Made by a program: the position numbers and the translations under genes. This document shows positions 9,249-55,551 of a DNA stretch of 64,000 nt, piece by piece (the first letter of the stretch is position 1; each line of letters opens with the position of its first letter). This DNA is from Planctomycetota bacterium (GTDB taxonomy: Bacteria > Planctomycetota > UBA1135 > UBA2386). Below the pieces are notes generated by a model. That model was not told the origin of the DNA and did not search any database. It was given only the letters and a program-made list of their open reading frames with translations. The stretch spans positions 30,459-94,458 of the forward strand of contig JAPYTD010000002.1 of the NCBI GenBank assembly GCA_029936315.1. Direction: 5' to 3'.

Positions 9249-9405
9249 AAACGAGAAGGGGCGGTGCTGGGAGGTCGGAGATGGCACGTAACGAATCCTG
9301 CGATGGCACGGGTCGATGGCATAGCTGGCACTTGCTCGTTCCCGCCGCGAGTAGACGACGAACAAAGTCAGGCAGGGCTGGAACCACCCGTAGGCAAAGT
9401 GTATT

Positions 9406-9415
9406 TTGTGCACAA
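9406..9415. promoter_or_regulatory. Candidate GntR-type operator palindrome TTGTGCACAA in the divergent promoter region
   Basis: A perfect 10-bp palindrome sits in a locally AT-rich patch about 50 nt upstream of the aldehyde dehydrogenase ATG (9465). It is flanked by ACAAAGTCA direct repeats at 9362 and 9412. Its GT-N2-AC core fits the general GntR/FadR operator form. Confidence 0.3.
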
Positions 9416-9464
9416 AGTCATAATCGCCCCCTCCGCCCCAGGCAACCAAAAGCTCATCCACACC

Positions 9465-11039
9465 ATGTCGACGCACAAGGTCCTCATCGCCGGCGCATGG
9501 CGCGCTGCCGATTCGAGCGGCTCCTTCCAGGCCCTCAATCCAGCCACCGGCGAGAGCCTGGCGGATCACTACCCCATCAGCAACTGGGCCGACTGCGACG
9601 CGGCCCTGAGCGCGGCGCAACAAGCCTTCGAAGGGCTTCGCCAACTAGCTCCGCAAGTGATGGCCGACTTCCTCGATGCCTATGCAGTCCGCATCGAGGC
9701 GCGGGCCGGTGAGATCACCGAACTCGCCAACCACGAAACGGCACTGGCCGTCGAACCGCGCCTGGCCTCGATTGAGCTGCCGCGCACCACCAGCCAGATG
9801 CGCCAAGCCGCCACGGCGTGTCGTGAGGGGCACTGGACGCACCCGGTCATCGACACTGCGGCGGGCATTCGCACCCAGTTTGGGCCGATCGGCCCGGTGT
9901 GCGTGTTCGGTCCCAATAACTTCCCGCTGGCCTTCGGCAGCGTCTCCGGCGGCGACTTTGTCGCAGCAATCGCGGCAGGCAACCCGGTGATCGCCAAGGC
10001 GCACCCACTGCACCCGGGCACCTCCCGCCTCTTGGCCGAAGAGGCGCAGGCCGCTGCTAAGTCCGTCGGCTTGCCCGCGGGCACGGTGCAACTGCTCTAC
10101 GACATGTCTCATGCGGATGGCGAGAGGTTGGCCCAAGACCATCGCTTGGCAGCCATCGCCTTCACGGGTTCACGCCATGGTGGACTCAAGCTCAAGGCTG
10201 CGGCAGATGCTGTTGGCAAGCCGATCTTCCTTGAACTCGGCTCCATCAACCCGGTGGTGATCCTGCCGGGAGCCCTGGCCGAAAAGGGCGAGGCCTTGGC
10301 CGACGAGTTCACAGGCAGCTGTCTGATGGGCACCGGCCAGTTCTGCACAAGCCCGGGCATGTTGGTGCTGCAGGCGGGTGAGCGCGCCGAAGCCTTCGTG
10401 AACAAGACCGTCAAGGGTTTCGCCGCCGCGCCAAGCGGCGTGCTGTTTTCTGAGTCAGGTCGTGAGAGCCTGGCGACCTCGGTGCAACGCTTGCATCAGG
10501 CCGGTGCGCAAATCCTCACTGGCGGGACGGCCGAAGCCGGCGATGCGCCGCGCTACACCAACACAGTGCTACGGGTCTCCGGCGCCGATTTCCTTGCGAG
10601 CAGTACGGCCTTGCAAGGTGAAGCGTTCGGCAATGCCACGCTGATCGTGATGACAGAGAACCAGGCGGAGACGTCGCAAGTGCTCAACACTCTTGAGGGC
10701 AACCTCACGGGCTGCATCTACTCCGCCACCGACGGCAGCGATGATCCAGCCTACGACGAATTGGCGCCAATCATGCGCCAGCGGGTTGGCCGACTGCTCA
10801 ACGACAAGATGCCCACTGGCGTCGCAGTGTCTCCGGCCATGAACCACGGCGGGCCGTTCCCGGCGACAGCCCAAGCCGGCTTCAGTGCCGTGGGCATCCC
10901 CGGAGCGCTGCTGCGCTTCGCCATGCTGCAGTGCTACGACAACGTGCGTCCGGAACGGTTGCCCCTTGGCTTGCGCGACCAAAACCCGGGCGAGCTTTGG
11001 CGGCAGGTCGATGGCCGCTGGACCCAGAGCAGCCTGTAG
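9465..11039 (+). CDS. NAD(P)-dependent aldehyde dehydrogenase, alpha-ketoglutarate-semialdehyde dehydrogenase-like
   Basis: I place the start at ATG 9465 (MSTHKVLIAGAWRAADSSGSFQALNPATGE). The ~524 aa length and the motifs FTGS..GG and ELGSINPVV are typical of the KGSADH-type subfamily. Genomic context is hydroxyproline genes. Confidence 0.85.
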   Translation: MSTHKVLIAGAWRAADSSGSFQALNPATGESLADHYPISNWADCDAALSAAQQAFEGLRQLAPQVMADFLDAYAVRIEARAGEITELANHETALAVEPRLASIELPRTTSQMRQAATACREGHWTHPVIDTAAGIRTQFGPIGPVCVFGPNNFPLAFGSVSGGDFVAAIAAGNPVIAKAHPLHPGTSRLLAEEAQAAAKSVGLPAGTVQLLYDMSHADGERLAQDHRLAAIAFTGSRHGGLKLKAAADAVGKPIFLELGSINPVVILPGALAEKGEALADEFTGSCLMGTGQFCTSPGMLVLQAGERAEAFVNKTVKGFAAAPSGVLFSESGRESLATSVQRLHQAGAQILTGGTAEAGDAPRYTNTVLRVSGADFLASSTALQGEAFGNATLIVMTENQAETSQVLNTLEGNLTGCIYSATDGSDDPAYDELAPIMRQRVGRLLNDKMPTGVAVSPAMNHGGPFPATAQAGFSAVGIPGALLRFAMLQCYDNVRPERLPLGLRDQNPGELWRQVDGRWTQSSL

Positions 11040-11061
11040 CCGGCCGCCAACCACCCGTGCA

Positions 11062-11943
11062 ATGCGCATCTCCGACTACGTCAAACGAGACCTCGAGTTC
11101 AGAATCCGTTCTGGGTCGGATCTTCCCGAAAAGCTGACCGTCGGGGCAATCGCGCAGGTCTACGGCGTCAGCGCGACCCCAGTGCGACAGGCACTGGATG
11201 AGTTGGTTGCAGATGACCTGATCATCAGGCAGGAGAACGGGCGTCTGAAGCTGCGTGCGCAGACCCGCCGGCTTCCGGTCGAACCACCGCCCGCGCGCCC
11301 GACCGACTGGGAAGCCGTGTTGGCGCGCGAAGTGATCCTGATGAGCCTGCGCGGCGAGGGCGGGTTCGTGCGCGAAGAAGCCATGGCGGAGAGTCACGGG
11401 ATCGGACGCACCATGTTGCGACGCATCTTCTCACGCCTGGCTGGTGGTGGGCTGTTGGAACACTTGCCGCGCCGCGGCTGGCTGATCCCGACCTTTCGCC
11501 CCGAAGAGATGGACGCCTATCTGGTCGTGCGCGAGTCGCTGGAGATCAAGGCCCTCGAGCTGGCGAGCACGCACCTTGATGACGCCGAGATCCAGACAAT
11601 GATCGAGGGCAACTCAGCGGTCGCGGTGGCAACAGCGAGCATCGACAACCGGCTGCATGCCTATTTCATCGAACAGTCAGGCAATCGCTACATCAGCTCG
11701 TTCTTCGAATCACACGGACGCTACTACAACGCACTCTTTGACTACGCCGGTCTCGGCCACGAGGTAGTTGCCGAGATGGCGGGACAGCACCTTGAGATCC
11801 TGACCAACGTTGCCAATGGGCGCTGGTCCCGCGCACGACGCGCACTCGCTCATCACATCCGATCCCAGAAACCGGTGATGGCAGCGATGATCGCCACGCT
11901 GGCAGCTCCTTCACTATCCGGCGCGACTGCGCGCGAAACCTAA
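11062..11943 (+). CDS. GntR/FadR-family transcriptional regulator
   Basis: ATG at 11062. The N-terminal winged helix-turn-helix is LTVGAIAQVYGVSATPVRQALDELVADDLI, followed by an FCD-like C-terminal domain. Confidence 0.85.
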   Translation: MRISDYVKRDLEFRIRSGSDLPEKLTVGAIAQVYGVSATPVRQALDELVADDLIIRQENGRLKLRAQTRRLPVEPPPARPTDWEAVLAREVILMSLRGEGGFVREEAMAESHGIGRTMLRRIFSRLAGGGLLEHLPRRGWLIPTFRPEEMDAYLVVRESLEIKALELASTHLDDAEIQTMIEGNSAVAVATASIDNRLHAYFIEQSGNRYISSFFESHGRYYNALFDYAGLGHEVVAEMAGQHLEILTNVANGRWSRARRALAHHIRSQKPVMAAMIATLAAPSLSGATARET

Positions 11944-11951
11944 CCCTCCCG

Positions 11952-12890
11952 ATGGACACGAGTATCTACCACGGCTGTATCCCAGCCCTCATGACCCCCT
12001 GCACCGTCGACCGCAGTCCTGACTTCCCCGCCTTGGTACGCAAGGCCCAAGAGTTGATGACGGCCGGCATGAGTGGCGTCGTCTACTGCGGGTCGATGGG
12101 TGACTGGCCACTGCTTACCGACGAACAACGTCAACTTGGCGTGGCGGACCTGTGCTCGGCTGGCGTTCCCACTATCGTTGGCACCGGTGCCATCAACACT
12201 CGCTCGGCCACGGCGCACGCCGCCCACGCTCAGGAAGTGGGAGCAAGTGGCTTGATGGTCATCCCTCGGGTGCTGTCGCGCGGCACCTCGCCGGCCGCCC
12301 AAAGGGCGCACTTCGCCGCGATCCTGGCCGCGGCGCCCGACGTGCCGGCAGTGATCTACAACAGTCCCTACTACGGCTTCGAGACCCGCGCCGAACTGTT
12401 CTTCGACTTGCGCCGCGACTTCAAGAACCTGATTGGCTTCAAGGAATTTGGCGGCGCCGCTGCGTTGAGCTACGCGGCCGAGAACATCACGTGCGCGGCC
12501 CCCGACCTGACCTTGATGGTGGGCGTAGACACGCAGGTCTTGCACGGCTACGTGAACTGCGGCGCTACAGGCGCCATCACGGGCATTGGCAACGCCCTGC
12601 CGCGCGAAGTGCTGCGCATGGTTGCGCTCTGCACCCGGGCGCAAACTGGCGACGTCGAAGCCCGTCGCCTCGCCAGCGAATTGGAACAAGCTCTCGGCGT
12701 GCTCTCGTCGTTCGACGAAGGACCCGACTTGGTGTTGTTCTACAAGTACCTGTTGGTCCTAAATGGCGAAGAGCAATACCGCGTGCACTTCAACGAGAGC
12801 GACGCACTCAGCCCCAGCCAACAGGCCTTCGTCGAAGATCAATACCGCTTGTTCAAGGACTGGTGGGCCAACTGGCCTGGCGCTGAGTAG
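11952..12890 (+). CDS. DHDPS/NAL-family lyase, probable 1-pyrroline-4-hydroxy-2-carboxylate deaminase
   Basis: YCGSMGDWPLLTDEQR...VIPRVLSRG...VIYNSPYYGF...GFKEFGG (Schiff-base Lys) matches my recollection of the hydroxyproline-cluster subfamily. It lies next to KGSADH and a proline-racemase-family gene. Confidence 0.8.
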   Translation: MDTSIYHGCIPALMTPCTVDRSPDFPALVRKAQELMTAGMSGVVYCGSMGDWPLLTDEQRQLGVADLCSAGVPTIVGTGAINTRSATAHAAHAQEVGASGLMVIPRVLSRGTSPAAQRAHFAAILAAAPDVPAVIYNSPYYGFETRAELFFDLRRDFKNLIGFKEFGGAAALSYAAENITCAAPDLTLMVGVDTQVLHGYVNCGATGAITGIGNALPREVLRMVALCTRAQTGDVEARRLASELEQALGVLSSFDEGPDLVLFYKYLLVLNGEEQYRVHFNESDALSPSQQAFVEDQYRLFKDWWANWPGAE

Positions 12891-12914
12891 GTACGGCGAC
12901 GAAGCACCGCGCTG

Positions 12915-13970
12915 CTATGCCCACAGATCCCCAACCGTGAACCCGTTCGGGAACGGGTCCTCGGGATCGACCACGTATTGCGCAAACCCGGTGATCCACG
13001 CTGTGCCTCGCAGGGTCGGCACGACTGCTGCGTATTCACCAACCCGCGTTTCGCGCAGCAGTCGCCCGGTAAATACCGTGCCGAGGATGCCTTCGTGGCG
13101 AAAGTCCTGTCCGAGGCCGAGCTGCCCCTTTCGGTGCATCACCGCCATCTTGGCGCAGGTGCCAGTACCGCAGGGCGAACGATCGAGGCAGCCCTTCCAA
13201 GTCGAAGGTCGCGCCCAGTCCAGCTCTCCAGTCGATACGATCACCGTGTTGCGGCGGTCGGCGTGATCACCGGAGGGTGGAGCCGAGAGCTGAGCGATCG
13301 AAACGCCACGAATCTCCGGATTGTCGGGATGCACGCAGTCGAGTTGCTGCTGCGTCGCCGCCTTGATCATCTCGCCGATGCGCACTGCATCACCGGCTTC
13401 GTCCGGGGTCAGGCGCAGGCCCAGCTTCTCGGCATCAGCGATGACGTAGAACATGCCGCCCCACGCGACGTCGACCGTGACGGTACCGAGTTCGGGAACT
13501 TCAACCGACGCATCTAAGTGAACCGCGAACGCCGGCACGTTCTCGAAGGTCACCGACTTGACCTTGCCATTCTCCACCTCCGCACGAATCCGGATCAACC
13601 CGGCCGGTGCCTCGAGCACAAGATTCGTAATCGGCTCCTGGGATGGCACCATGCCTGTCTCGATCAGGACCGTTGCGACGGCGATGGTGTTGGTGCCCGA
13701 CATCGGCACGTACTCGACCTGCTCCATGATCACGAACCCGGCAGCCGCTTCCGGACGGGTCGGCGGCAAGATCAGGTTGCAGTTGGCGGCCGGGTAGCCG
13801 CGTGGTTCGCGCAGCATGCGCTGGCGAAGTTCATCGCCATGCTGTTCGAGGTACCTCATCTTCTCGAACATCGTCGTCCCGGGCACGTCGAGCACCCCTC
13901 CGACGATCACGCGGGCGGGCTCGCCAGCGGCGTGGGTGTCGACGGCTTGGATCATCTTGCTGACGCGCAT
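12915..13970 (-). CDS. Proline racemase-family enzyme (4-hydroxyproline epimerase-like) with a Ser/Cys catalytic pair
   Basis: MRVSKMIQAVDTHAAGEPARVIVGG...PMSGTNTIAV...DRSPCGTGTCAKMA. The start could be ATG 13970 or 13955. The first catalytic position is Ser (codon 13698..13700) where canonical members have MCGH. Confidence 0.88.
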   Translation of the reverse strand: MRVSKMIQAVDTHAAGEPARVIVGGVLDVPGTTMFEKMRYLEQHGDELRQRMLREPRGYPAANCNLILPPTRPEAAAGFVIMEQVEYVPMSGTNTIAVATVLIETGMVPSQEPITNLVLEAPAGLIRIRAEVENGKVKSVTFENVPAFAVHLDASVEVPELGTVTVDVAWGGMFYVIADAEKLGLRLTPDEAGDAVRIGEMIKAATQQQLDCVHPDNPEIRGVSIAQLSAPPSGDHADRRNTVIVSTGELDWARPSTWKGCLDRSPCGTGTCAKMAVMHRKGQLGLGQDFRHEGILGTVFTGRLLRETRVGEYAAVVPTLRGTAWITGFAQYVVDPEDPFPNGFTVGDLWA

Positions 13971-14210
13971 GCGATTCCTGGTTTGGCCTAGGCATGGCAC
14001 AAACAAGCAGCGCTTCAGCCAACCCGAACGCCACTACGACACGATCCTGCCCTTGCGAGAGCGCGTCAACCCGCAAGTTCAGGGAGCCGACCGAGCCCAA
14101 GACGCATGCTTGCAAGCACTGGACAAACCGCCGCTCGAGGGCGAGAGCAAGCGGGCCTGGTTCGGCCGTGTGCTCCAGAACCTGAGCCGCCAGAAACATC
14201 GCGGTGACCG

Positions 14211-14562: not shown

Positions 14563-15582
14563 ATGAAGTCGATCACACTGCATTGTCACGCCAAGTTCGC
14601 CGCGGCAGCCGCCCTGGCCGTCGCGATCCTTGCGAGCCCCACGGCCAGTCAGACCTCGTCTACCGAAGGTCGCAGCACCTCCAGCAAGACGGAACTCCGA
14701 GCCGGCATCGCCTGGTACGGCGTGCTACAGGACGGCATGGCCGAAGCCCAGCGCACGGGCCGCCCGATCATGTACCTGACGGCCGCGCCGCAGTGCAGCG
14801 GCGTCCCGGGGATGTGGTGACCCGGTAAGCAAGACATGGACAGGGGTCTCCTGTCCGACCAAGCTGTCATCGAAGCATCCCGTGCGTTCGTCTGTATCCG
14901 AACCGCGACCTACGAGGATGCAGCCGAAGCCAAGTTCCAACGAGCCACCCTGTCCGGCGGTCGCGGGGACCTGCGCAACTTTGGCTACTGCCTGCTGTCA
15001 CCCAACGGCAAGAGGGCAATCCGTCGCAGTTCGCGCGGACCCAATTACATCTACGCCAACGCCGGCGCGATGGCCGCGGAGCTTCGCAAGGTCGCTGGCA
15101 GGTACCCGGCAAAGGCGAGTGCCAACAAGAGTCCGAAGACTCTGCCGCAGTTGAAGAACGTGCGCCTCGCACTCAACGTGGCGAGCTGTGACGGGCTTCC
15201 CCTGGTCGTCGTCGTGGGCAAGGATGCCAAGAAGGTCGCCGCCATGAGCAAACGACTCAGTGCGGTCGCCTGGCGTGACGACCTGCTCGGCAAGTTCATC
15301 TACGCGGCAACGGCCGAGGCGGCGGATCTCAGTGGCATCGACATCGCATCGAAGGGTCATGGCTTCTACGTGATCGAACCCGACGACTACGGGCTCGCAG
15401 GCGAACTGATCCGAAAGCTCAGCGCAACGTCGTCCGAGCGTGACTTGACGAACGCGCTGCAATCCATCGCCAAGGAGTTCGATAAACCCACCAAGGTCCA
15501 CCGCCAACACGTGCGCCAGGGACGGCGCGCCGGCAAGACCTGGAAGACCGAAGTGCCGGTCCCGAAGCGTCGGCGACGGTAG
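14563..15582 (+). CDS. Secreted thioredoxin-fold-like protein with in-frame TGA (14818..14820); candidate selenoprotein
   Basis: Track ORFs 14563..14820 and 14836..15582 share one frame and are separated only by a TGA and 5 sense codons. The first ORF has signal peptide MKSITLHCHAKFAAAAALAVAILASPTASQ. The read-through sequence is ...GRPIMYLTAAPQCSGVPGMW-TGA-PGKQDMDRGLLSDQAVIEASRAFVCIRT. AGGAAG lies 4 nt upstream of the ATG. Confidence 0.55.
14838..14856 (+). promoter_or_regulatory. SECIS-like hairpin GGACAGG-GGUCU-CCUGUCC downstream of the in-frame UGA
   Basis: A perfect 7-bp stem starts 17 nt after the UGA, and the apical loop begins 24 nt after it. The GGUCU loop resembles the GGUC(U) apical loop of the E. 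coli fdhF SECIS, recalled from memory. Confidence 0.45.
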
Positions 15583-15744: not shown

Positions 15745-18018
15745 CTACTTCATCGGCGGGATCTTCTGCTCTTCAAACCAAAGCGAGAGATGGCCGCGCG
15801 GCGGCATCAGCCCGCGCCGCGGGTGGTTGTAGCGCAGGAAGCTGGTGACGGCGACGGTCGCCTTGCCGCCTTCGAACTCGTCGCGGAAGTCGTTGTAGAT
15901 GTATGCGCCCCGAGGCTGTCCACCCTGCCGTTTGCCGACCCCGACATTCGACTGGGCCAGCAACTTGCCGTTGACCCAGATGGCATAGCCCTCGCCGGCA
16001 TTGACGTGAGCGCTACCCCCGACCAGGATCCGATACCGGTGGCCCTCTTTGAGCGGCGGAAACTCGAACGTGCCGCGGAGCAGCAGCACTTCCTTCTCCC
16101 ACATGGTTTTCGGCGCCTCGCCGCACCGGCAGAACAATGCCGTACAGCTTTCCGAAAGCGGCAGTAGCTTGCCTTCGAGCTGGCCGAAGGGCTGCAGCCC
16201 TTTCTTCCAACCGGCCTTGGCCGGGTCGAAATCGGGCGCGAACCAACTCGCCATGCCATCGGGATACGTTACCTCGCGGTAGCGGCTCCCCTTCTCCTTG
16301 GGCCGCGTCTCTGCTGGGTCGAAGCTGAAGTAATCCCACTGTGCGTGGTCTAGAGCGGGACCGAAGGAGTGCCAATCGTAATCGTCTACTCCGGCAGCGC
16401 GGTAGCAGTTGGCCAGCCCGAACATCGCACCCCGCACGAACTGGTTCGCGCGCTGTGGTCGTTCGCCGAGCACCTCCTGCAAGAGCGCCTTGTTGTAGCG
16501 TGGGTTGACGGCGTAGGACGCCGCAATGCCAGCGAGGATGATCGGCGCCAGCGCCTTTTGCGCGGCGGCCAACTCCACCTCCGACGGCTCCGCGGTCTCA
16601 TGTCGGGCGACGGGTTTCGGCCGGGAGGACCGCAGCAGCGGTGCCGCTTGGCCGCCAAGCAACCCAACCATCGCCCGGCCGAGGGCATCGCCAACCAACA
16701 TGTAGGTCTCGGCGTTACGGTTGTAGTGGTAGTCCTGGCTCCGCGGCGACTCGTCGACCTCGCGCCAGAAGTCGCGAATGTCGACCGAGGTCACGGTGCC
16801 AGCGAACTCGGGGTGTTGCGTTGCATCACCGACGGCCATCTGTGCCTTGAGGATCCTCAGGAACTTGTCCGACATGTTGTGTCCACCGAACCCGACGGTC
16901 GCAACCACAACGGGCAGCTTCGGCACCTGGAACTCCTTGCGCACGTCGAGGATCAGATTGACGAGGTTCTGCTCGTACTGCGCGATGGATTCCTCGGTGC
17001 CACTGTCCTTGTGGCCCTGAAACCAGGCGAAGCCAGCGATCTCGTATCCCTGCCCCTGGTAACCAGGAACGACGCTCTCGATGTTGGCGAGGGTCTTGTG
17101 CACACCCTCGATCATCAGCTTGTATTCGAGTGACTCCCACTCGCTGTCAGGGTCCGTGCGTCCGCTAGACGGCGGGCGAAAATCGAATCCCAGCGAGCGA
17201 TTGCCCATCGCTGTCTTGATGAGCAGAACCTGCTCGTCGTGGAACGTGCCCATCACGTGCCCGAAGCCGAGCTCCGGCCCGATAGACTTGCCGTTCGAGG
17301 TGGCACTCAGCGGCGAGCCCTTGCCATCCTTCGCGAGCCGGGCTTCCTGAACGTAGACATCTCGGCGCACGGTCCAGTTGCCCTCCCCGTCGACCAGCCA
17401 GGGGAACTTCCCCTCGCGCTTGGCCACGGCCTCGAGGTCGCCATTGCCGAGCAGGTCGACCTTCTCAAGCCAGAACCTCGGCGGGTCACCCTTGAAAGCT
17501 GTGATCTCGAATGCGTACCTCGTGCCTGGCTCGAGAGTCACATGGACCGGCTCGTCGAGCACTGGACGGCGGTAGACTTCCTTGCCATCGAGCTCCATCA
17601 CGCAATGAGAGTTCTCACGGAAACCGCAGTGCAACTGATAGACACCTCGCTGCAGAACCTCTAGCTGCCCCTTCGCGATCGGCTTGTCGGCCTCTGTGCC
17701 GTCCGGCAGGTAAACGAGTAGCTTCGAGACCTTGAAGTTGCCGACGCGATAGATCTGCAACGGCCCGTCGGGTACGGCGGGATCGGAGCTGAGGTAGACC
17801 CCGGTGTAGACGTTTCGCGCCCCACCGAGATCCCCCATCCCGACCATGTTGGACTGGCCGGCGAGGATGTAGACCTTGACCGGCTTACCGGCGTTGCCCG
17901 GCTCGGCATTCGGGTCGGACAATCGGGCCGGAACCTGCGCCTCGGCGCAAAGGGCGAACAAGGCCAGGAAGACAGCTACCGCCACACGGCTGCATACACG
18001 CGATGGGTTGTTGGACAT
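15745..18018 (-). CDS. Secreted sialate-O-acetylesterase-like (DUF303/SGNH) protein with PA14-like insertion and C-terminal beta-sandwich-like domain
   Basis: I place the start at ATG 18018 (MSNNPSRVCSRVAVAVFLALFALCAEAQ). VKVYILAGQSNMVGMG ... SIGPELGFGHVMG...VLLIKTAMGNRSL...RPPSS is paralogous to 23370..24380. Confidence 0.85.
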   Translation of the reverse strand: MSNNPSRVCSRVAVAVFLALFALCAEAQVPARLSDPNAEPGNAGKPVKVYILAGQSNMVGMGDLGGARNVYTGVYLSSDPAVPDGPLQIYRVGNFKVSKLLVYLPDGTEADKPIAKGQLEVLQRGVYQLHCGFRENSHCVMELDGKEVYRRPVLDEPVHVTLEPGTRYAFEITAFKGDPPRFWLEKVDLLGNGDLEAVAKREGKFPWLVDGEGNWTVRRDVYVQEARLAKDGKGSPLSATSNGKSIGPELGFGHVMGTFHDEQVLLIKTAMGNRSLGFDFRPPSSGRTDPDSEWESLEYKLMIEGVHKTLANIESVVPGYQGQGYEIAGFAWFQGHKDSGTEESIAQYEQNLVNLILDVRKEFQVPKLPVVVATVGFGGHNMSDKFLRILKAQMAVGDATQHPEFAGTVTSVDIRDFWREVDESPRSQDYHYNRNAETYMLVGDALGRAMVGLLGGQAAPLLRSSRPKPVARHETAEPSEVELAAAQKALAPIILAGIAASYAVNPRYNKALLQEVLGERPQRANQFVRGAMFGLANCYRAAGVDDYDWHSFGPALDHAQWDYFSFDPAETRPKEKGSRYREVTYPDGMASWFAPDFDPAKAGWKKGLQPFGQLEGKLLPLSESCTALFCRCGEAPKTMWEKEVLLLRGTFEFPPLKEGHRYRILVGGSAHVNAGEGYAIWVNGKLLAQSNVGVGKRQGGQPRGAYIYNDFRDEFEGGKATVAVTSFLRYNHPRRGLMPPRGHLSLWFEEQKIPPMK

Positions 18019-18214
18019 CTTGTTGAGGTGTTCCAAAGTAAACACGGCCGCTTTCTCCTCACGGCACGGAATCCCCACACAACGTTCCAAACGGCTCCTA
18101 GACACCCTAGGACGGTCGAGCAATCGCATAGGCACTGCAGAACTAAACTCCAGCGACCGTCGCAAAGAGCAATCCCCCACCGATCGCCACTGCTGCACGG
18201 TGATCCAAGCGACT

Positions 18215-19432
18215 TCAGAGCAGTTCGGCAAGCGCAGTGATCAGCCGCTCAACTTCCGCCGGCGAGTTGTAGTGCACGAGGCTGGCGCGGATCACTCCGT
18301 CCCGGTCCATGAGACCCATGTCGCGAATCGCGCGATAGGCGTAGAAGTGGCCCCAGCGCAGGGCGAGTCGGCGCTCGTCGAGCCGCGGCGGAAGCTCACT
18401 GGAACGCATCCCGTCGACGCTGAAGGCGACGGTCGGAACGCGACGCGCGGGGTCAGCCGCTGGCACGCCGTGCAGCGTCACGCGCGGATGTTCGACGAGG
18501 AAGTCGATCAGCGGTGCGATCAGCTGCGACTCCCATGCGGCGACATCGGCGAAGATCCCTGCCAACCGCTCCGCACTTGGCTCCGGACTCTGTGCCCCCT
18601 CGTCGAGGCTCGTCAGGTATTCGCAGATACCGGGCAACGAGGCCACCAACTCGTGATTCACGCCCCCCGGCTCAAGCTTGCCCGGGACGTCGTGCTCGCC
18701 GAAGAAGAAGTGGCACTGACCCTTCGCATGCTCAAGAAGCTCACGCCTGCCGAAGAGCACCGCTTGGTGCGGACCGTAGACCTTGTAGAGGCTAGCGACG
18801 TAGAAATCGACGCCGAGCGAACGCACGTCGACAGCACGATGCGGGGCAAACGCCACCCCATCGACAAAGCTCCACGCACCCGCCTCGCGGATGCGTGCGG
18901 CGATGCTCGCCACGTCGTGAATCGTGCCCGTGACGTTCGGGCAATGCGTGAAGGCGACGAGTCGCGTGCGGTCGGATAGCAGCGGCTCCAGGTCCTCAAG
19001 TTCGAGCGCGAGAGTCTCTGGCCGGAAGCGCCACTCCTTGACGACGACACCGCGCTCTTCGAGCCCCCGCCACGGACCAATGTTTGCCTCGTGATCGAGA
19101 TTGGTGACGATCACCTCATCGCCGGGCGCGAACCGCGCGCCAAGAGCGCACGCCATGCGCTGCACCAGCACCGTCGTCGAGGCACCATGCACGATCTCTC
19201 CCGGGTCCGCATTGAATAGGCACGCCGCCGCGCGGCGTCCTGCGTCGACGGCTGCAACCGCGTCCCGGGACAGCGCGTAGGTTGCCCCATGTTGCACGGC
19301 ATGGCGTTCCATATAGCCCGTGAGACGCTCGATCACGGGGCGGGCGGGCACCGTTCCGCCCGCGTTGTCGAATAGCGCCCAGTCGGATCGCAGGGCAGGA
19401 AACGAGGCGCGGGCGGCATTCAGGTCGAGCAT
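18215..19432 (-). CDS. Class-V aminotransferase, cysteine-desulfurase-like family
   Basis: FPALRSDWALFDNAGG...THCPNVTG...ASLYKVYGP (PLP Lys)...LRWGHFYAYR...VIRASLVHYNSPAEVERL. The position equivalent to the SufS GHHCA cysteine reads GHFYA. Confidence 0.85.
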   Translation of the reverse strand: MLDLNAARASFPALRSDWALFDNAGGTVPARPVIERLTGYMERHAVQHGATYALSRDAVAAVDAGRRAAACLFNADPGEIVHGASTTVLVQRMACALGARFAPGDEVIVTNLDHEANIGPWRGLEERGVVVKEWRFRPETLALELEDLEPLLSDRTRLVAFTHCPNVTGTIHDVASIAARIREAGAWSFVDGVAFAPHRAVDVRSLGVDFYVASLYKVYGPHQAVLFGRRELLEHAKGQCHFFFGEHDVPGKLEPGGVNHELVASLPGICEYLTSLDEGAQSPEPSAERLAGIFADVAAWESQLIAPLIDFLVEHPRVTLHGVPAADPARRVPTVAFSVDGMRSSELPPRLDERRLALRWGHFYAYRAIRDMGLMDRDGVIRASLVHYNSPAEVERLITALAELL

Positions 19433-23369: not shown

Positions 23370-24380
23370 CTACTTCTTGCCGACGAGGATCTTGATCATC
23401 GCTTGTGCCGAGGCATCGCCGACCAGGCAATAGCTCTCCGCGCTGTTGTGCCAGTGGCTCTTTTGCCGGCCAGGTTTGTGTATTTGGAAGTGTCGGGTCG
23501 GGACCGCGGTGCATCGATTGTGCCTGGCCGCGGCAGCGATTTGCTGTGGCTCGATACTCTTGCCGAGGAAGCCGGCAACGCCCGAAGCCTTCGGACCACC
23601 CATCCCGCTTGTCGCAATGACGAAGGGCAGGTTCTTGACGCCGAGGTCTTTGCGTAGGTCGACAATGAAGTTGCTCATGTTGGCCTCATACTCCTTCGCG
23701 AAGTTCTTGGAGCAGGCGTCGTTCCAACCCTGATGCCAGAGGAAGCCAACGATTTCGTAGCCTTGGCCGCGATAGCTTGGGAAGTGCTTCTTCAAGTTGC
23801 CGAGCACCATCTGCACTTCTTCGAGCATGCTCCGGTAGCGCAAGCCGAATTGCTGCTTGATGTCATCGAGTGAGGCGTTGGGGTTCTTCTTCTTCTTCTT
23901 TGCCAGCATCGCTTGCAGGGTGGCGTGCTCTGGCAGCTTCGAACTCGGTGGGCGGAAGGTTGCGGCAAGCGCCTGACCACCCCAGGCAGTCTTGATGAGC
24001 AGCACCTGCGACTTGTAGTGCTCGCCGAGGAGGTGACCAAAGGTGAGTTCGGGGCCGATGCTCTTGGCGTTGGCTCCGAGTCCGACCCTCAGGTTGCACT
24101 TGATGACGGATCCTCTCCCTGGCTTGTGAAAGTACCAGACATCCTTGCGCTCAACCCATTCTCCATCCCTCTTCAGATAGGCAAACTGCTGTTGCGCGGC
24201 GGCGTAGTCGAGATCGCCGTCCTTGTTCATGCTGATCCTGCCGTGGCCTTGCATGTTGGATTGGCCGGCGAGGATGAACACCTTGATCTTCGCCTTGGAG
24301 CCAGTGTCCTGGGCCAGGATCGAGTGCGGTGTGCACAGGGCAGCCAGAGTCGCCGTGATGTAGAAGAATACGCGCGTCAT
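23370..24380 (-). CDS. Secreted sialate-O-acetylesterase-like (DUF303/SGNH) protein
   Basis: Signal peptide MTRVFFYITATLAALCTPHSILAQ. IKVFILAGQSNMQGHG...SIGPELTFGHLLG...VLLIKTAWGGQAL..RPPSS...GFLWHQGWND. Confidence 0.85.
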   Translation of the reverse strand: MTRVFFYITATLAALCTPHSILAQDTGSKAKIKVFILAGQSNMQGHGRISMNKDGDLDYAAAQQQFAYLKRDGEWVERKDVWYFHKPGRGSVIKCNLRVGLGANAKSIGPELTFGHLLGEHYKSQVLLIKTAWGGQALAATFRPPSSKLPEHATLQAMLAKKKKKNPNASLDDIKQQFGLRYRSMLEEVQMVLGNLKKHFPSYRGQGYEIVGFLWHQGWNDACSKNFAKEYEANMSNFIVDLRKDLGVKNLPFVIATSGMGGPKASGVAGFLGKSIEPQQIAAAARHNRCTAVPTRHFQIHKPGRQKSHWHNSAESYCLVGDASAQAMIKILVGKK

Positions 24381-27780: not shown

Positions 27781-28040
27781 ACCCCCAGCGGCGACATCGC
27801 GGCTGGCGGCGTCAAACAAACAGCTGAACGTCTGCGCCGTTCGCGCGCAACGCCAAGCAGTTTGGCAATTCGAGCGCCTGTCCGGCTGACGAGCGAGGCG
27901 ATAGCCAATTGCGTGTGCTCACTGGCAGCACACTACGGAGTTGTCACCGGGCGCCATGCGGTTCTCGCCGAACGCAGCAACGCCCTCTAGGATTCTCGGC
28001 AGATCGAACTGCAACGTTCCGAGACACCGACAGAATCCGC

Positions 28041-29693
28041 ATGAAACATCTCCCCATCGCTCTCTCACTGGCCTTTGCACTCTGCACGGAGGCATCGGCG
28101 CAGCTGCACCTCGCCAACTCGTTTGGCGATCACATGGTCTTGCAACGTGACATCGGCGCCAGGGTCTGGGGCACCGCAACACCTGGCGAAACCGTTGCGA
28201 TCGCTTTCGCCGGCAAGTCGGCAACGGCAACAGCAGCGAAGCACGGTCGCTGGATCGCCACCCTACCTCCCATGCCGGCTAACGCAGAAGGTCGAGAGCT
28301 CGTCGTGACCGGCTCTAGCGACAGCGTGCGAATCAGAGATGTACTCGTCGGGGATGTCTGGGTCTGTGGCGGGCAGAGCAACATGGCATGGACCATGAGC
28401 GGATCGCGCGATGCAGACATCGAGATCGATTCCGCCGATACGCCCCAAGTCCGCTACCTGCGTATGCCACAGATCGCGATCGCCGAGCCACAGACCGACT
28501 TTCCCGTCGCGAGCCCGACGCACAAGGTTGGCAACTGGCGACTCTGCACTCCAGAGCAAGTCGAAGCCTGCACCGCCGTGGGTTACTACTTCGCCCGCCG
28601 CCTACATCGTCGACTACGGATTCCGATCGGAATCATCGACACCTCCTGGGGCGGCACGATGGCGCAACACTGGTGCTCCAAGGCAACGCTTCGAACGTTC
28701 GCCACGATGAACTCCTACTTCGCCACCTACGAAGCCAAACGCAAGGAATGGATCGACGGCGGCAAGGAAGAGGGAGCCAATCGACGCTACGAGGCCGACG
28801 TCGCAACTTGGCAGAAAGCTCGGGATGCCGCCAAGGCTTCCGGAGAGCGCGAGCCACGTCGCCCCAACAAGCGCAACTACGAGAACCCGGGTGACCAAGG
28901 ACACCCAGGGGCGATGTTCAACGGCATGATCGAGCCAATCAAGAACACGGCACTGCGCGGAGTCGTGTTCTACCAAGGCGAAAACAATTCATTCGGAGAG
29001 ACCTGGAAGCCCTTCTCGAGCACATTCCCCGCCGTCATCCGTGACTGGCGGAGAGCATTCGGAGTCTCCGATTTGCCGTTCTGCAACATCCAGATTGCCG
29101 GCTGGAGCACGCGTCGCACGATGACCTACGACATGAACCACCACACCAACATCATTCGTGAGGTGCAGCTGGATACCTGGCAAGACACCGAGAACACCGG
29201 ACTCATCGTCACCTACGACTGCAACAGCAATGGCAGCATCCACCCGGGACGCAAACTGCCCGTCGGGGAACGCACGGCGCGGTGGGCGCTAGCCGAGGTC
29301 TACGGGACAACGGACCGTCGCAACAAGCGGCCAATCGAATGGCGCGGCCCGCTCTACGAGGGAATGCGGATCGTCGACAACAAGATCTTCGTCTCGTTCG
29401 TCAAGGAGACTGCGCGAGGACTGCGACTCAACAAGGATGTCGCGTTCGGCTTCTATGTGGCCGGCGAGGACAAGACCTTCCACCACGCATCGGCACGCAT
29501 TCACGGCAAGACGAGCGAGGTCGAGATCTGGTGTGATGCTGTCAAGCAACCGGTGGCGGCACGCTACGGCTGGTCCAATCTTCCGGCAGGTACACTTCTG
29601 AACGGTCGCGAGCTACCGGCCTACCCGTTCCGCACGGACAACTGGCCGATGGAGCCCCATCAGTCGACCGGATCCTACGTTCGCGGGAAGTAG
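28041..29693 (+). CDS. Sialate O-acetylesterase-family protein (classical long form)
   Basis: ATG at 28041 gives MKHLPIALSLAFALCTEASAQ. LANSFGDHMVLQRD...VWVCGGQSNMAW...GIIDTSWGGT...VVFYQGENN. Confidence 0.88.
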   Translation: MKHLPIALSLAFALCTEASAQLHLANSFGDHMVLQRDIGARVWGTATPGETVAIAFAGKSATATAAKHGRWIATLPPMPANAEGRELVVTGSSDSVRIRDVLVGDVWVCGGQSNMAWTMSGSRDADIEIDSADTPQVRYLRMPQIAIAEPQTDFPVASPTHKVGNWRLCTPEQVEACTAVGYYFARRLHRRLRIPIGIIDTSWGGTMAQHWCSKATLRTFATMNSYFATYEAKRKEWIDGGKEEGANRRYEADVATWQKARDAAKASGEREPRRPNKRNYENPGDQGHPGAMFNGMIEPIKNTALRGVVFYQGENNSFGETWKPFSSTFPAVIRDWRRAFGVSDLPFCNIQIAGWSTRRTMTYDMNHHTNIIREVQLDTWQDTENTGLIVTYDCNSNGSIHPGRKLPVGERTARWALAEVYGTTDRRNKRPIEWRGPLYEGMRIVDNKIFVSFVKETARGLRLNKDVAFGFYVAGEDKTFHHASARIHGKTSEVEIWCDAVKQPVAARYGWSNLPAGTLLNGRELPAYPFRTDNWPMEPHQSTGSYVRGK

Positions 29694-36089: not shown

Positions 36090-37496
36090 TCAGGCCATCA
36101 GTTGCCGCACCAACTTGCCGTGCACATCCGTCAACCGATAGTCACGGCCCTGGAATCGGAACGTCAGTCGTTCGTGGTTGATGCCCAGCAAGTGCAACAC
36201 CGTTGCGTGCATGTCATGCAAGTGCACCGGATCCTCGACAACGGTGTAGCCGAGGTCATCGGTCTTGCCGATCGTCTGACCAGGCTGGATGCCGCCACCC
36301 GCAAACCACATCGTGAACGCGCGCGGGTTGTGGTCGCGACCAAGAACAGTCTTGCTGCGCACTTCCCGCATCGGTGTGCGACCGAACTCCCCGCCCCAAA
36401 CAACCAACGTGTCCTCGAGCATGCCGCGCTGCGCCAAATCGAGCACGAGCGCCGCTGCCGCCTGATCGGTCTGTCGGCACATATTGGGCAAGCCGTGCAA
36501 CAGGTCGTCACTTTTATTGGAACCGTGATGATCCCAGCCGCGATGGATGACTTGCACGTGGCGCACGCCGCGTTCCAACAGGCGCCGCGCCAACAGGCAG
36601 TTGTTCGCGAACGAACGCTTGCCAGGTTTGCTGCCATACAGGCGGTGCACATGGTCCGGTTCGCTACCAAGGTCCCCCAACTCCGGCACGCTATCCTGCA
36701 TGCGGTAGGCCAACTGGTAGGCCTCGCTGCGCGCGACGATCTCGGGGTCTTGAATCTGCTCGTGGCGCTGCGCGTTCAGTTCCCTAAGCAGGTCGATGCC
36801 ACGCTTTCGCGCGACGCGATCCATCGTCCTGGGATCACTGATACACGGCACGAGATCACCGCGCGTGCGCAGTTCGACACCCTGTAACGTCGAAGGCAAG
36901 AAGCCATTGGCCCAGCAGGCCGAGCCAGCGCCCGGATCAATCTTGCCAGACACGAGCACACAGAAGCCGGGCAAGTTGCGACTCTCAGCGCCGAGACCAA
37001 ACAACAGCCAACTGCCTAGGCTCGGCCGACCAACGAGGTGATGCCCGGTGTTGGCGAAGACCTGCGCCGGGCCGTGGTTGAACGGATTGGTGTAGACCGA
37101 TTTGACGAACGCCAGGCGGTCCGCAATCCCCGCCGTGTGTGGCAACAACTCGCTAATCTCGGCCTTGGATTCGCCGTAGTTGCGAAACGAGTACGGCGAG
37201 CCAAGCAGGTTTGGGATGCCCTTCAAGAACGCGAACCGCTGCCCCTTGAGCAACTCCTTGGGCACGGGCTCGCCGTCGTGCTTGCGCAGCACCGGCTTGT
37301 CGTCGAACAGATCGAGCGACGAGGGCGCACCCGCCATGAACAACTGCACGATGCGTTTTGCGCGGGGCACATGATGCGGGCCTCCACCCGACTCGCCGAG
37401 GCGAGGCACCGCCATAGCAGGTAGCACACTCGCACCAAGGGCAGCACTCGCCGCAGCAATCACCTGACGGCGATTGGGTTCAAAGGCAATGCTCAT
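36090..37496 (-). CDS. DUF1501 protein with Tat-type signal
   Basis: MSIAFEPNRRQVIAAASAALGASVLPAMA. LFMAGAPSSLDLFDDKP...RDHNPRAFTMWFAGGGIQ. The start overlaps the stop of 37493..39268 (ATGA). Confidence 0.92.
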   Translation of the reverse strand: MSIAFEPNRRQVIAAASAALGASVLPAMAVPRLGESGGGPHHVPRAKRIVQLFMAGAPSSLDLFDDKPVLRKHDGEPVPKELLKGQRFAFLKGIPNLLGSPYSFRNYGESKAEISELLPHTAGIADRLAFVKSVYTNPFNHGPAQVFANTGHHLVGRPSLGSWLLFGLGAESRNLPGFCVLVSGKIDPGAGSACWANGFLPSTLQGVELRTRGDLVPCISDPRTMDRVARKRGIDLLRELNAQRHEQIQDPEIVARSEAYQLAYRMQDSVPELGDLGSEPDHVHRLYGSKPGKRSFANNCLLARRLLERGVRHVQVIHRGWDHHGSNKSDDLLHGLPNMCRQTDQAAAALVLDLAQRGMLEDTLVVWGGEFGRTPMREVRSKTVLGRDHNPRAFTMWFAGGGIQPGQTIGKTDDLGYTVVEDPVHLHDMHATVLHLLGINHERLTFRFQGRDYRLTDVHGKLVRQLMA

Positions 37497-39268
37497 CCGC
37501 GGTTCAACGTCTCATCGAGGTTTAGGAGGATAATCGCGATGCGCTGCCAGGCACGCGCTTGTGGTTCGGCCGCCAGAGCCTTCTGCAACGAATCAAGTTC
37601 GCTTCTGGTTGGCGTTCGCGAGGTGCAGGCCACGAAGCCGAGCTGAAGTTGGTCACGCACATCTCCGCTGGCAGACGACATGCGGACAGCCAACGCATTC
37701 GCAGCCGCCAACGCCGTCGGGTCGTTGAGTCCGACCAACGCCTGCATCGGTGTATTGCTGCGTTCGCGTTGCACCTGGCAGACCTCGCGCGACGGCGCAT
37801 CATATGCCTTGAACGCGACGAACGGCGCCGTTCGGCGCCAATACGTGTAGAGCCCACGTCGCCACCGGTCTTCGCCCTTGCTGGTCGGCCACCTCATGCT
37901 GACCTTGTTCATCGGCACGACGCCACTGGTGTCCGCTTGCATTGGATAGACGCTGGGCCCACCCACCTTGCGCGACAACAAACCGGCCGCGACCAACCAC
38001 GTGTCGCGAATGCGCTCGGCATCGAGGCGAAATCGCGTGCCACGAGCATAGAAGCGGTTGTCCGGATCCCGTTTGCGCAGTTCGGCACTGACAACGGTGC
38101 TGCGTTGGTAGACATCCGACTGCACGATCGTGCGAATCAACCGCTTCTGACTCCACCCCACCCGCACAAACTCGGTGGCAAGCCAGTCAAGCAAGTCGAC
38201 ATGCAGAGGCTTCGGCGCCTGCACACCAAAGTCCTCGGGCGTATCGATCAACGACTGGCCGAGCAGTTCCATCCAGATGCGATTGGCGGCAACGCGCGGG
38301 GTCAACGGGTTGTCGGGCGACACCAACCAGCGCGCCAACGAGAGTCGGTCCCTCGGCGCATCCCCAACCACTTCTTCGAGCGTCGGCGAGAACGCGGCGG
38401 GCAAGTGCGCTGGCACAGCTTCTCCCGGGCTGTCGAAGGCGCCGCGCAGACGAAGCCGCGTCACCGCCTTGGCGCCGCGCTTCTCGCGCAACGCCAGCGT
38501 CTTGCTGCCATCCTGCCGCTTGATTACGACCTCGTCTTGGGTCTCGAAGAACGCGACCAAACCATAGAACTCGCGCTGCGAAACGGGGTCGTACTTGTGG
38601 TCGTGACACTGCGCGCAATGCAATGTGCTTCCAAGCCAAGTCGTGCCGGTTGTGCTGGCACGATCGAGCAAACGCTCCCACCGCGCCTCCTTCGGATCCA
38701 CACCGCCTTCGTTGTTCAACATCGTGTGACGATGAAACCCCGTAGCGATACGCGTGCTTTCGTCGGCATCGGGCAGCATGTCGCCGGCCAACTGCTCGAT
38801 CGTGAAGCGATCAAACGGCAAATCACGATTGAGGGCATCGATCAGCCAATCGCGGTACGGCCATACACTGCGGCCACCGTCAAAGTTGTAGCCGTTGGTG
38901 TCGCCGTAGCGCGCCAGGTCGAGCCATGGTACCGCCCATCGTTCGCCGTAGTGGGGCGAGGCGAGCAACTGATCGACCAGCCGCCCATAAGCACCGTCTT
39001 TCTGATCCGCGAGAAACGCCTCAAGCTCTGCAAGCGTCGGCGGCAAACCGACCAAATCGAGATAGAGGCGACGCGCCAACGTCGCGCGGTCGGCGCGAGC
39101 AGTGGCGGCCAGGTTTGCTGCGGGCAACTTGGCCTCGACGAATGCATCGAGGATTGTGCGCGCCGCAATCGGTGGCTCTCGACGCACCGGTTTGCGATAG
39201 GCCCAATGCTCCTGGGGTTGCTGCGGCAGCAGCGCGGCTACTAGCGCGAGCGAAGCAAGCAAGGGCAT
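37493..39268 (-). CDS. DUF1549 + DUF1553 protein (no cytochrome or lectin module)
   Basis: HWAYRKP...ILDAFVEAKL...LARRLYLDLVGLPPTLAELEAF...YGERWAVPWLDLARYGDTNGY...CAQCHDHKYDP...NPLTPRVAANRIWMELLG. Confidence 0.92.
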   Translation of the reverse strand: MPLLASLALVAALLPQQPQEHWAYRKPVRREPPIAARTILDAFVEAKLPAANLAATARADRATLARRLYLDLVGLPPTLAELEAFLADQKDGAYGRLVDQLLASPHYGERWAVPWLDLARYGDTNGYNFDGGRSVWPYRDWLIDALNRDLPFDRFTIEQLAGDMLPDADESTRIATGFHRHTMLNNEGGVDPKEARWERLLDRASTTGTTWLGSTLHCAQCHDHKYDPVSQREFYGLVAFFETQDEVVIKRQDGSKTLALREKRGAKAVTRLRLRGAFDSPGEAVPAHLPAAFSPTLEEVVGDAPRDRLSLARWLVSPDNPLTPRVAANRIWMELLGQSLIDTPEDFGVQAPKPLHVDLLDWLATEFVRVGWSQKRLIRTIVQSDVYQRSTVVSAELRKRDPDNRFYARGTRFRLDAERIRDTWLVAAGLLSRKVGGPSVYPMQADTSGVVPMNKVSMRWPTSKGEDRWRRGLYTYWRRTAPFVAFKAYDAPSREVCQVQRERSNTPMQALVGLNDPTALAAANALAVRMSSASGDVRDQLQLGFVACTSRTPTRSELDSLQKALAAEPQARAWQRIAIILLNLDETLNRG

Positions 39269-47235: not shown

Positions 47236-47700
47236 GAAATGAACCGCTAGTGGCGGCAGCATATGCGGTCCGTGGAGCAGTGTTAGCCCCCGTACTGGCG
47301 CTGATTTCGGTGTGGCGGCTGATGGCGCTACACGGGAAGGGCAGGGCAACGAAGGTGCGCGCGTGCCAACGGGTCCACTGGTTTCGATACCACTGAGTGG
47401 CTCTTCATCACGACAGCCGCCAAGGCATAGGCAGACCATCGCGACCGCGGCATATGGCAAGATCAGCAGCGACTGAAGACTGCGCATAGTGGGATTCGTC
47501 ATTGGTCGTCGCGCCATGGCATTATGCAACCGGAGAGGCACCCCGTCGCGCTTGTAGCATTTGTACACGGATGTGTATGATTCCGCCTTCTGCCGAATCC
47601 ATGCCAGATCCGGGCTCAAGCATCCCAAGGCGCTGTAAAACCACATTCCCGCTCTCATGGGCATGGCAAGAGCGCACCTTCAGTGTGTAGATTTTCGTCA

Positions 47701-55273: not shown

Positions 55274-55551
55274 TGCGATGTTCGTCGGTTCGTTGGTGAA
55301 GGGGTGCACGGGGTCCGGCACGTCCGGGGTCCGCAAGGGTGAGAAGGCGGACCCGTGGATTCTACTGCACAGGCCGCTGGAACCCAAAGCTGCTGCCTGC
55401 CGCGGTGGCGCGCGCTCACCCCCTCGACCACGCAGCTTGACGCCATGTGCAAATCGTGCCGGCGGGCCACATACCGGGGTCAACACCCCCAACGCGCCTT
55501 GCATGTCGAGGAGGATGGAATCTCGGCTACCCGACGCCAGACTGGGAACCA

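Follow-up and report, generated by a model that had tools for sequence, protein, structure and literature searches.

A predicted exported selenoprotein family with a thioredoxin-like fold, split by gene callers at an in-frame UGA in Planctomycetota and other bacteria

Positions 14563-15582 of a 64-kb stretch of Planctomycetota DNA (64,000 nucleotides, referred to here as the window) are, on the sequence evidence, very probably a single gene in which an in-frame UGA almost certainly encodes selenocysteine (Sec), and the predicted product is an exported thioredoxin-like protein. The family to which this gene belongs is apparently undescribed, with Pfam, NCBIfam 20.0 and the open literature as the yardstick; it is widespread, occurring in over 400 sequence clusters and no fewer than 68 species, and almost always has Sec at this position. 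The recoding follows the ordinary bacterial route of Sec insertion, and no fold is commoner among selenoproteins. Gene callers split the family everywhere, into an N-terminal fragment of about 60-90 amino acids and a 'hypothetical protein' of about 250 amino acids.

The gene is made up of two open reading frames (ORFs) in the same frame, 14563..14820 (85 codons plus TGA) and 14836..15582 (248 amino acids), between which lie only the TGA at 14818-14820 and the five sense codons CCC GGT AAG CAA GAC (P-G-K-Q-D). Reading through from ATG 14563 to the TAG at 15580-15582 gives a conceptual product of 339 amino acids with the junction ...AAPQCSGVPGMW-[UGA]-PGKQDMDRGLLSDQAVIEASRAFVCIRTATYED..., and the GC content at third codon positions is 0.85 before the TGA and 0.77 after it, the confirmed genes of the window having 0.76-0.77. 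A preliminary description had proposed the shared frame split by a TGA and five sense codons, the G/C-rich third positions on both sides, a Cys eight residues upstream of the TGA and a hairpin at 14838-14856 that starts 17 nucleotides, and has its loop 24 nucleotides, beyond the UGA; all of these agree with the coordinates, text and values obtained here, the hairpin exactly so, and the Cys is residue 78. It had also proposed a 339-residue periplasmic or secreted redox protein, of which the length stands, while export and a redox role are best kept as predictions. The features on which the argument depends are as follows.

14563..15582, plus strand: read-through coding sequence (CDS) of 339 codons with UGA-Sec as codon 86 and a TAG stop, assigned from tblastn alignments that cross the junction in one frame (68 loci) and from conservation on both sides of it.
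14563..14649, plus strand: predicted signal peptide, approximately residues 1-29, read from the sequence (basic N-region, hydrophobic FAAAAALAVAILA, then SPTAS-Q).
14794..14796, plus strand: Cys78, invariant (Cys in 69 of 69 sequences, with both Cys codons used), eight residues before Sec (C-x7-U) and inside an 8-residue insert absent from TXNDC12; candidate resolving or partner Cys.
14818..14820, plus strand: proposed Sec codon, an in-frame UGA (residue 86) in the motif G-x-W-U-P-G-K; TGA in all 69 sequences, with TGC or TGT instead in three uncommon relatives, and aligned with the first Cys of TXNDC12 WCGAC.
14838..14856, plus strand: hairpin resembling a selenocysteine insertion sequence (SECIS), GGACAGG-GGUCU-CCUGUCC, with the stem formed by 14838-14844 and 14850-14856 and the apical loop GGUCU at 14845-14849; assigned from covariation, folding energy and the rules for bacterial SECIS elements (bSECIS).

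The N-terminus, MKSITLHCHAK-FAAAAALAVAILA-SPTASQ, resembles by eye a signal peptide of the Sec secretion type, and a hydrophobic N-terminal segment precedes the conserved domain in 66 of 67 homologous loci. We infer that the product is exported by means of this signal peptide.

Comparison with other genomes carries the case for recoding. A scan of one genome per GTDB species yielded 68 related loci, and with the window added 69 sequences were available. The aligned codon was TGA in all 68 loci (69 of 69 with the window) and never TAA or TAG, and the tblastn alignments traversed the junction in one frame. Whereas a true terminator would drift among the stop codons, this UGA is conserved among orthologues and is not interchangeable with UAA or UAG, which argues that it is not an ordinary stop. 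The genetic code is standard, since TGA serves as the normal stop of 6 of the 17 genes in the window that have Pfam support. The loci are chiefly from Planctomycetota, with further examples from Obscuribacterales, Vulcanimicrobiota, Armatimonadota and others. The TGA is present, for instance, in Rohdeia mirabilis Pla163, whose genome is complete (NZ_CP036290.1), and on contigs of 3.9 Mb from Vulcanimicrobiota (JBFWNU010000001.1) and of 853 kb from Obscuribacterales. Counting residues from the UGA, Ala at -24, Cys at -8, Gly at -3 and Trp at -1 were each present in 69 of 69 sequences, and Pro at +1 and Gly at +2 in 68 and 67, respectively, all four codons being used for each of these two. Invariant residues written with several synonymous codons extend from -37 to +32, which indicates protein-level selection on both sides of the TGA. 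The residue at the second CxxC position was Lys in 55 of the 69, Tyr or Phe in the others and never Cys.

The same alignment bears on where translation of the downstream part could begin. An ATG stands six codons after the TGA in 47 of the 69 loci; none occurs within 38 codons in 19 of them, and ATG, GTG and TTG are all absent within 10 codons in approximately 17. The first residues after the TGA are conserved even in loci without a nearby start codon, which excludes independent initiation of the downstream part as a separate gene. The preliminary description had allowed that the downstream ORF might be an independent family, a possibility that fails here as about a quarter of the loci have no start codon near the junction.

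The hairpin begins 17 nucleotides and its loop 24 nucleotides after the UGA; the stem has 7 base pairs and the 19-nucleotide core alone has an energy of -11.2 kcal/mol. Published constraints on bSECIS elements are a loop of 3-9 nucleotides, a stem of 4-16 base pairs, a G in the first two loop positions and a distance of 16-37 nucleotides from the UGA, together with a typical loop of N1-G-[G/U]-N-N2 and an energy of -7.5 kcal/mol or lower (PMC13188914). The window hairpin passes all of them (7 base pairs, GGUCU, 24 nucleotides, -11.2 kcal/mol); 65 of the 69 sequences pass the structural rules and 46 pass the energy rule too, the latter calculated on the 19-nucleotide core alone. The consensus loop of the family, A-G-U-U-U, fits the bSECIS loop pattern exactly. 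In the ungapped 69-sequence alignment the stem holds the same columns, and 94.1% of stem cells are paired, a share that falls to 38-62% once the 3' arm is displaced by 1-3 nucleotides. Both-sided changes were found in seven of eight stem pairs (47 cells), and none of 500 shuffles reached the observed values. The window stem GGACAGG/CCUGUCC is replaced by GGAGAGG/CCUCUCC in one locus (L016), by the related AGAGGGG/CCUCUCU in Rohdeia (L064) and by GACAUG/CAUGUC in Obscuribacterales. In L056 the stem GGAUAGG/CCUAUCC results from a change of Asp GAC to GAT and of Leu CTG to CTA, both synonymous, and the same two synonymous changes are present in L020 (GGAUAGA/UCUAUC). Such fully synonymous paired changes imply that the hairpin structure is selected independently of the protein.

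The hairpin had been read as a SECIS element in the preliminary description, and its retention in place, its compensatory changes and its fit to the bSECIS consensus and to the 16-37 nucleotide spacing bear this out. It is like the E. coli fdhF SECIS and the bSECISearch consensus in lying within the CDS just after the UGA, in a loop that starts with G and then G or U, and in the 24-nucleotide spacing; it is unlike them in the (A)GUU(U) loop of the family, the 8-bp stem and the absence of the bulged U. The loop of the window itself, GGUCU, resembles that of fdhF. Rfam returned only noise, both at gathering thresholds for the whole window and at permissive thresholds for 14760-14920, and appears to have no usable bacterial SECIS model. 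These comparisons strongly support reading UGA 14818 as sense, with its decoding linked to a conserved bSECIS-type hairpin.

Protein databases show the same junction as a break. A protein search with the read-through query, U replaced by C, returned 101 proteins, nearly all of 248-261 amino acids and starting at the Met five codons past the TGA (MDRSFLS...). With a profile of the junction region 388 proteins were matched, and of the 120 that were listed, 101 were short ORFs ending at ...C....G.W, 16 were C-terminal fragments and one spanned the junction. Altogether 221 database proteins were considered, of which 101 end at ...C....G.W, at least 99 are C-terminal fragments from just after the TGA (most beginning M-D-R) and two span the junction. 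An exhaustive HMMER search with P0071, a Cys form that crosses the junction (...HCAGVSGTWCPGKQEMDRNFLS...), produced 516 cluster representatives, 401 of them at E <= 1e-10, and among the best 150 of the 516 only P0252 and P0280 span the junction, both with GMWCPGKG. Across the 221 proteins and the best 150 of the 516, there are three junction-spanning Cys forms versus hundreds of TGA-cut fragments. The window's own downstream ORF is carried by three metagenome assemblies at NCBI, where the gene is annotated as two, of 85 and 248 amino acids.

The Cys forms are single continuous ORFs that all read WCPGK, with TGC in P0071 and P0280 and TGT in P0252. The hairpin is gone from P0280 and P0252 (loci L075 and L076), where -2.9 kcal/mol is left and the loop is not G-initiated, and P0071 (L069) has a weaker stem and an A in place of the loop G. 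The hairpin thus goes together with the UGA. One check suggested in the preliminary description was whether homologues carry Cys or Sec at the aligned column, and the outcome, TGA in 68 of 68 loci and Cys in the rare P0071, P0252 and P0280, is in its favour. As far as the sequences can tell, Cys, the isostere of Sec, is the sole substitution in intact genes. Two candidate non-Cys homologues were rejected: P0102 (L074:1501-1926), which has CGA (Arg) at the Sec column and an intact hairpin, as a decayed copy whose ORF breaks off at 141 amino acids, and P0103 as a frameshift artefact, inferred from its protein sequence.

Other homologous loci show variations of their own. Decayed copies are found in L026, with an extra in-frame TAG 34 codons past the TGA (around 3214), and in L063, with a frameshift approximately 16 codons past the TGA (after 3160). 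In L069 (9468-10003), an ORF in another frame, whose repeated LTxxQ-like motifs resemble Spy/CpxP by eye, comes directly before P0071, and the conserved 'IQWFASL' segment of the family lies upstream of the called start of P0071; this may reflect a frameshift in the contig, whose name suggests a long-read assembly, or a different N-terminus. A Sec form in L047 (1357-2463) is longer at its C-terminus by about 100 residues, which contain EF-hand calcium-binding motifs (Pfam EF-hand_5, E 5e-12). P0252, in L076 (1036-5020), has TGT, lacks the hairpin and is EF-hand-like at its N-terminus; a YHYH-domain gene and then a HupE/UreJ_2 gene come after it on that strand, closely spaced or overlapping, an arrangement that may point to some role related to metals in the Cys clade.

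The product is modelled as two tandem thioredoxin-fold domains followed by a conserved C-terminal motif.

14701..15102, plus strand: thioredoxin-like domain 1, approximately residues 47-180, with Sec at the N-terminus of helix 1; limits approximate, mapped from the P0071 model, with Foldseek, weak Pfam and NCBIfam matches and the TXNDC12 profile.
15145..15477, plus strand: thioredoxin-like domain 2, lacking CxxC, approximately residues 195-305, containing the conserved RLALNVASCDGLP; limits approximate, from a predicted local distance difference test score (pLDDT) > 90, Foldseek matches to two-domain PDI modules and conservation.
15499..15567, plus strand: C-terminal motif H-x-x-H-V-R-x-G-R-R-x-G-x-x-W-x-T-E-V-P-V-P, in which H316, R318 and W327 are invariant in alignment A1.

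The AlphaFold2 model of the Cys form P0071 (pLDDT 81.7, predicted template modelling score 0.76) has a classic thioredoxin fold (secondary structure E-H-E-H-E-E-H over residues 13-125), then a second thioredoxin-like domain and then C-terminal helices. The top Foldseek matches were two-domain PDI modules, b'-a' and a-b (E 1.5e-4), and thioredoxins, AGR3, DsbD-gamma and PDI were also matched at probability 0.9-1.0. When the family is aligned with TXNDC12 (E 0.02), W-U-P-G-K falls on W-C-G-A-C with U at the first Cys, and eight residues around the invariant Cys form a family-specific insert. The TGA had been placed in the preliminary description at the nucleophilic Cys of a WCxxC motif; the family profile, which puts the UGA on the first Cys of TXNDC12/ERp18, upholds that position, but the second Cys of the layout is not there and the motif is U-x-x-K. 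Any partner Cys would therefore lie elsewhere, and the invariant upstream Cys78 is the obvious candidate. Decoding of the UGA as Sec, as first proposed in that description, is thus supported by TGA conservation, hairpin covariation, the Sec/Cys pairs and the TXNDC12 alignment. The C-terminal motif is replaced in the Cys clade P0252/P0280, and its HxxH is kept in Sec forms.

We propose that the hairpin at 14838-14856, within the CDS, would recruit SelB and Sec-tRNA(Sec) to the UGA at 14818-14820, that Sec would be inserted at residue 86 and that translation would run on to the TAG to give a 339-residue precursor, exported by its N-terminal signal peptide. Sec86 would occupy the position of the nucleophilic first Cys of WCxxC, with Lys in place of the second (U-P-G-K), and the likeliest course is that in the periplasm its selenolate would attack an oxidised substrate, which could be a peroxide, a sulfenate or a disulfide. 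As the second motif Cys is Lys, it is probably Cys78 that resolves the oxidised selenium: the resulting selenenic acid or selenenylsulfide would be resolved as an intramolecular Se-S bond, and an external donor, either a cytochrome or a thiol partner, would re-reduce the protein. In one clade PSCyt1, a Planctomycete cytochrome c domain with CxxCH, is fused N-terminally, after the signal peptide and ahead of the Sec-thioredoxin module (Pfam; L028:2581-3120, E 4e-16; L033:2512-3120, E 7e-15), and L036 and L037 were assigned to this clade by their similar N-termini. The fusion speaks for a protein that is located in the periplasm and exchanges electrons with haem c, and suggests a c-type cytochrome as partner. 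The protein would then have a redox role in the periplasm, in which cytochrome c or metals may be involved.

Several results weigh against this account. The 64-kb window contains no tRNA, and selA, selB and selD are not among the 20 of its ORFs that were scanned with Pfam; Planctomycetes with complete selA/B/C/D sets have been documented (PMC4807772). The 71-nucleotide fold of the single window sequence gave a modest z of -1.9, and since single-sequence statistics are modest the case for the hairpin rests on the comparison with other genomes. The hairpin also encodes the conserved D-R-S-F-L-S, so that its conservation is partly shared with constraint on the protein. The read-through protein matched nothing at threshold in NCBIfam 20.0 or Pfam: Thioredoxin_7 (PF13899) scored 12.1 bits against a cutoff of 27, over residues 50-79 only, and NF041199, the sole NCBIfam match, scored 11.2 bits against a cutoff of 300 over residues 50-119. 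No precomputed Pfam domains were present among the homologues of both protein searches. Against solved structures the junction profile was sub-significant for TXNDC12/ERp18 (E 0.02), AGR2 and AGR3 also being matched. In the P0071 model the active-site loop has pLDDT < 50, which leaves the geometry of Cys78 and Sec86 uncertain; confidence is low there because the alignment lacked those residues. Finally, in the neighbourhoods of the 69 loci no gene was common beyond close relatives, so that substrate and redox partner are read from the clade-specific fusion alone, and the metal-related genes beside one Cys-form locus (L076) fit metal binding as well as catalysis. A weak Pfam match to DUF7155 (E 0.017) was separately rejected as a family for the N-terminal fragments, as a true match would score far higher.

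A simple alternative to recoding is that there are two independent genes, TGA 14818 being the true stop of an 85-residue secreted peptide and ATG 14836 the start of a 248-residue protein. All public gene calls have it so (85 + 248 amino acids in the three NCBI metagenome assemblies and hundreds of separate fragments), and 47 of 69 loci offer an ATG six codons past the TGA. However, the stop is TGA in 69 of 69 with no drift to TAA or TAG, the five codons from TGA to ATG keep their amino acids and vary synonymously, the sequence is still conserved in the 19 loci that have no ATG for at least 38 codons, and the Cys forms run as single continuous ORFs; moreover, a thioredoxin fold needs both strand 1, which precedes the TGA, and helix 1, which follows it. 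We consider two genes highly improbable. It is also very unlikely that the UGA is read as a standard amino acid (near-cognate Trp, Cys or Arg) with the hairpin as a generic read-through stimulator. This would suit a window in which Sec machinery was not seen (no tRNA; 20 ORFs scanned with Pfam) and the single relative with CGA (Arg) at the column, but that Arg variant is a 141-residue truncated remnant, and the only functional-looking substitutions are to Cys. The codon stands where a thioredoxin fold has its catalytic nucleophile, a place at which neither Trp nor Arg would function, the hairpin matches SelB-type bSECIS elements in loop size, loop start (G then U/G) and spacing, and Planctomycetes are documented users of Sec (PMC4807772). 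As for a pseudogene or an assembly or sequencing error in the window, some relatives are indeed damaged (the frameshift in L063, the extra TAG in L026 and the truncation in L074); against this, the same arrangement recurs in 68 independent species-level genomes and in more than 100 metagenomic fragments that end at the same Trp, and an identical downstream ORF lies behind an 85-residue ORF in three independent NCBI assemblies. The probability left to this explanation is negligible.

A serious rival exists at the level of function, namely that the protein is a selenoprotein in which Sec86, Cys78 and the C-terminal His bind a metal or metalloid, in a Sco1- or chaperone-like manner, and do not take part in redox catalysis. 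The absence of the second CxxC Cys (U-P-G-K) would be consistent with this, as would the C-terminal H-x-x-H, which is kept in Sec forms and absent from the Cys clade, and the YHYH and HupE/UreJ_2 genes, both of metal-related Pfam families, that follow the Cys-form gene of L076 on the same strand. About 70% of predicted Sec-ligand interactions involve metals (PMC13188914), and the haem-c fusions are also compatible with metallochaperone systems. The Sec forms, though, have no conserved neighbourhood of metal genes, and the active-site position and Trp-Sec-Pro context are those of redox-active thioredoxin-fold proteins. We regard metal binding as a possible role, though one that we doubt.

The relation of the family to known systems can also be considered. 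Sec-thioredoxin (PF00085, UxxC), thiol:disulfide interchange proteins (PF13098) and Prx-like proteins (PMC13188914, Table 1) share with it a thioredoxin fold and Sec at the helix-1 nucleophile. The thioredoxin-fold selenoproteins of that table also have a hairpin within the CDS 16-37 nucleotides past the UGA, with a loop start of G-U/G, and are presumably redox proteins; the present family differs from them in having U-x-x-K and not U-x-x-C, with the sole nearby Cys 8 residues upstream in an insert, and in its second thioredoxin-like domain, its C-terminal motif and its sub-threshold Pfam and NCBIfam scores. NF041199 (Trx7/PDZ domain-containing (seleno)protein) is likewise a Thioredoxin_7-type selenoprotein family; it differs in its CxxU motif and PDZ domain, whereas here the motif is UxxK, Pfam found no PDZ domain and the score is 11.2 bits against 300. 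The alignment with TXNDC12/ERp18, AGR2/AGR3 and DsbD-gamma spans the helix before strand 1, strand 1, W-C/U, helix 1 and strand 2. Of the solved structures these gave the best profile matches. They are, however, single-domain Cys proteins (CxxC/CxxS) of the eukaryotic endoplasmic reticulum or the bacterial inner membrane, and the Cys-bearing 8-residue insert is found in the new family only. The b'-a' and a-b modules of PDI (PDB 3wt2, 2b5e, 9wzl) resemble the product over approximately 260 aligned columns in their tandem catalytic and non-catalytic thioredoxin-like domains; they differ in that identity is 9-13% and the template modelling score 0.22-0.31 (reflecting domain orientation), and homology is not evident beyond the shared fold.

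None of the 119 prokaryotic selenoprotein families in a 2026 review table (PMC13188914) corresponds to this one, there being no W-U-P-G-K or C-x7-U among them, although families given by generic domains are not fully excludable. A full-text search of the open literature for the Sec motif of the family returned nothing relevant. Nearly all selenoproteins have far more abundant Cys homologues (PMC13188914); BSepDB and deep-Sep start from known families or need Cys homologues among the top hits, and the GOS survey likewise relied on Cys homologues. With approximately three Cys homologues among several hundred clusters, it is perhaps not surprising that the family could be missed by such discovery pipelines. 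On balance we lean somewhat towards the full interpretation, that this is an uncatalogued family of exported selenoproteins with two thioredoxin domains, C-x7-U-P-G-K and near-exclusive use of Sec, overlooked by Cys-dependent pipelines, whose selenol may act in the periplasm with c-type cytochromes or metals.

The remainder of the window offers some context. A scan for other genes with an in-frame TGA and coding signal on both sides found nothing credible within it: a candidate at 46394 was rejected as it lies on the strand opposite the long ORF 43465-47664, and one at 56058 as it is not a gene, the FG-GAP/ASPIC gene upstream ending in TAG. A class-V aminotransferase gene (Aminotran_5, the fold type of cysteine desulfurase and selenocysteine lyase, assigned at the level of Pfam) is located at 18215-19432 on the minus strand, 2.6 kb downstream of the selenoprotein gene and one gene away. 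Upstream, a likely hydroxyproline/proline utilisation cluster (9264-14006) encodes an aldehyde dehydrogenase, a GntR/FCD regulator, a DHDPS-family enzyme and a proline racemase/epimerase; it is not conserved beside homologues and is unrelated to the selenoprotein finding. Three paralogous SASA (sialate O-acetylesterase-like) genes (15745-18231, 23370-24380 and 27909-29693) and a pair of DUF1501 and PSD1/PSCyt2 genes (36090-39268, minus strand) are typical Planctomycete content. A 431-residue ORF at 54641-55936 (minus strand) has an AhpC/TSA 1-Cys peroxiredoxin domain from residue 227; its first 226 residues match nothing and its real start is probably internal.

Rohdeia mirabilis Pla163, a cultured strain whose genome is complete, has the gene, so that the prediction is directly testable. 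Confirmation would mean that hundreds of 'hypothetical protein' pairs, from Planctomycetota and several further phyla, are to be re-annotated as a single selenoprotein, and would add a widespread family to the bacterial selenoproteome. Its unusual features, namely a U-x-x-K active site with an upstream Cys, export and the near absence of Cys replacement, against the general rule, would make the family instructive on the question of when Sec is irreplaceable. The family would also mark the use of Sec in lineages where it is little documented, such as Vulcanimicrobiota and Obscuribacterales, the latter being non-photosynthetic relatives of Cyanobacteria.

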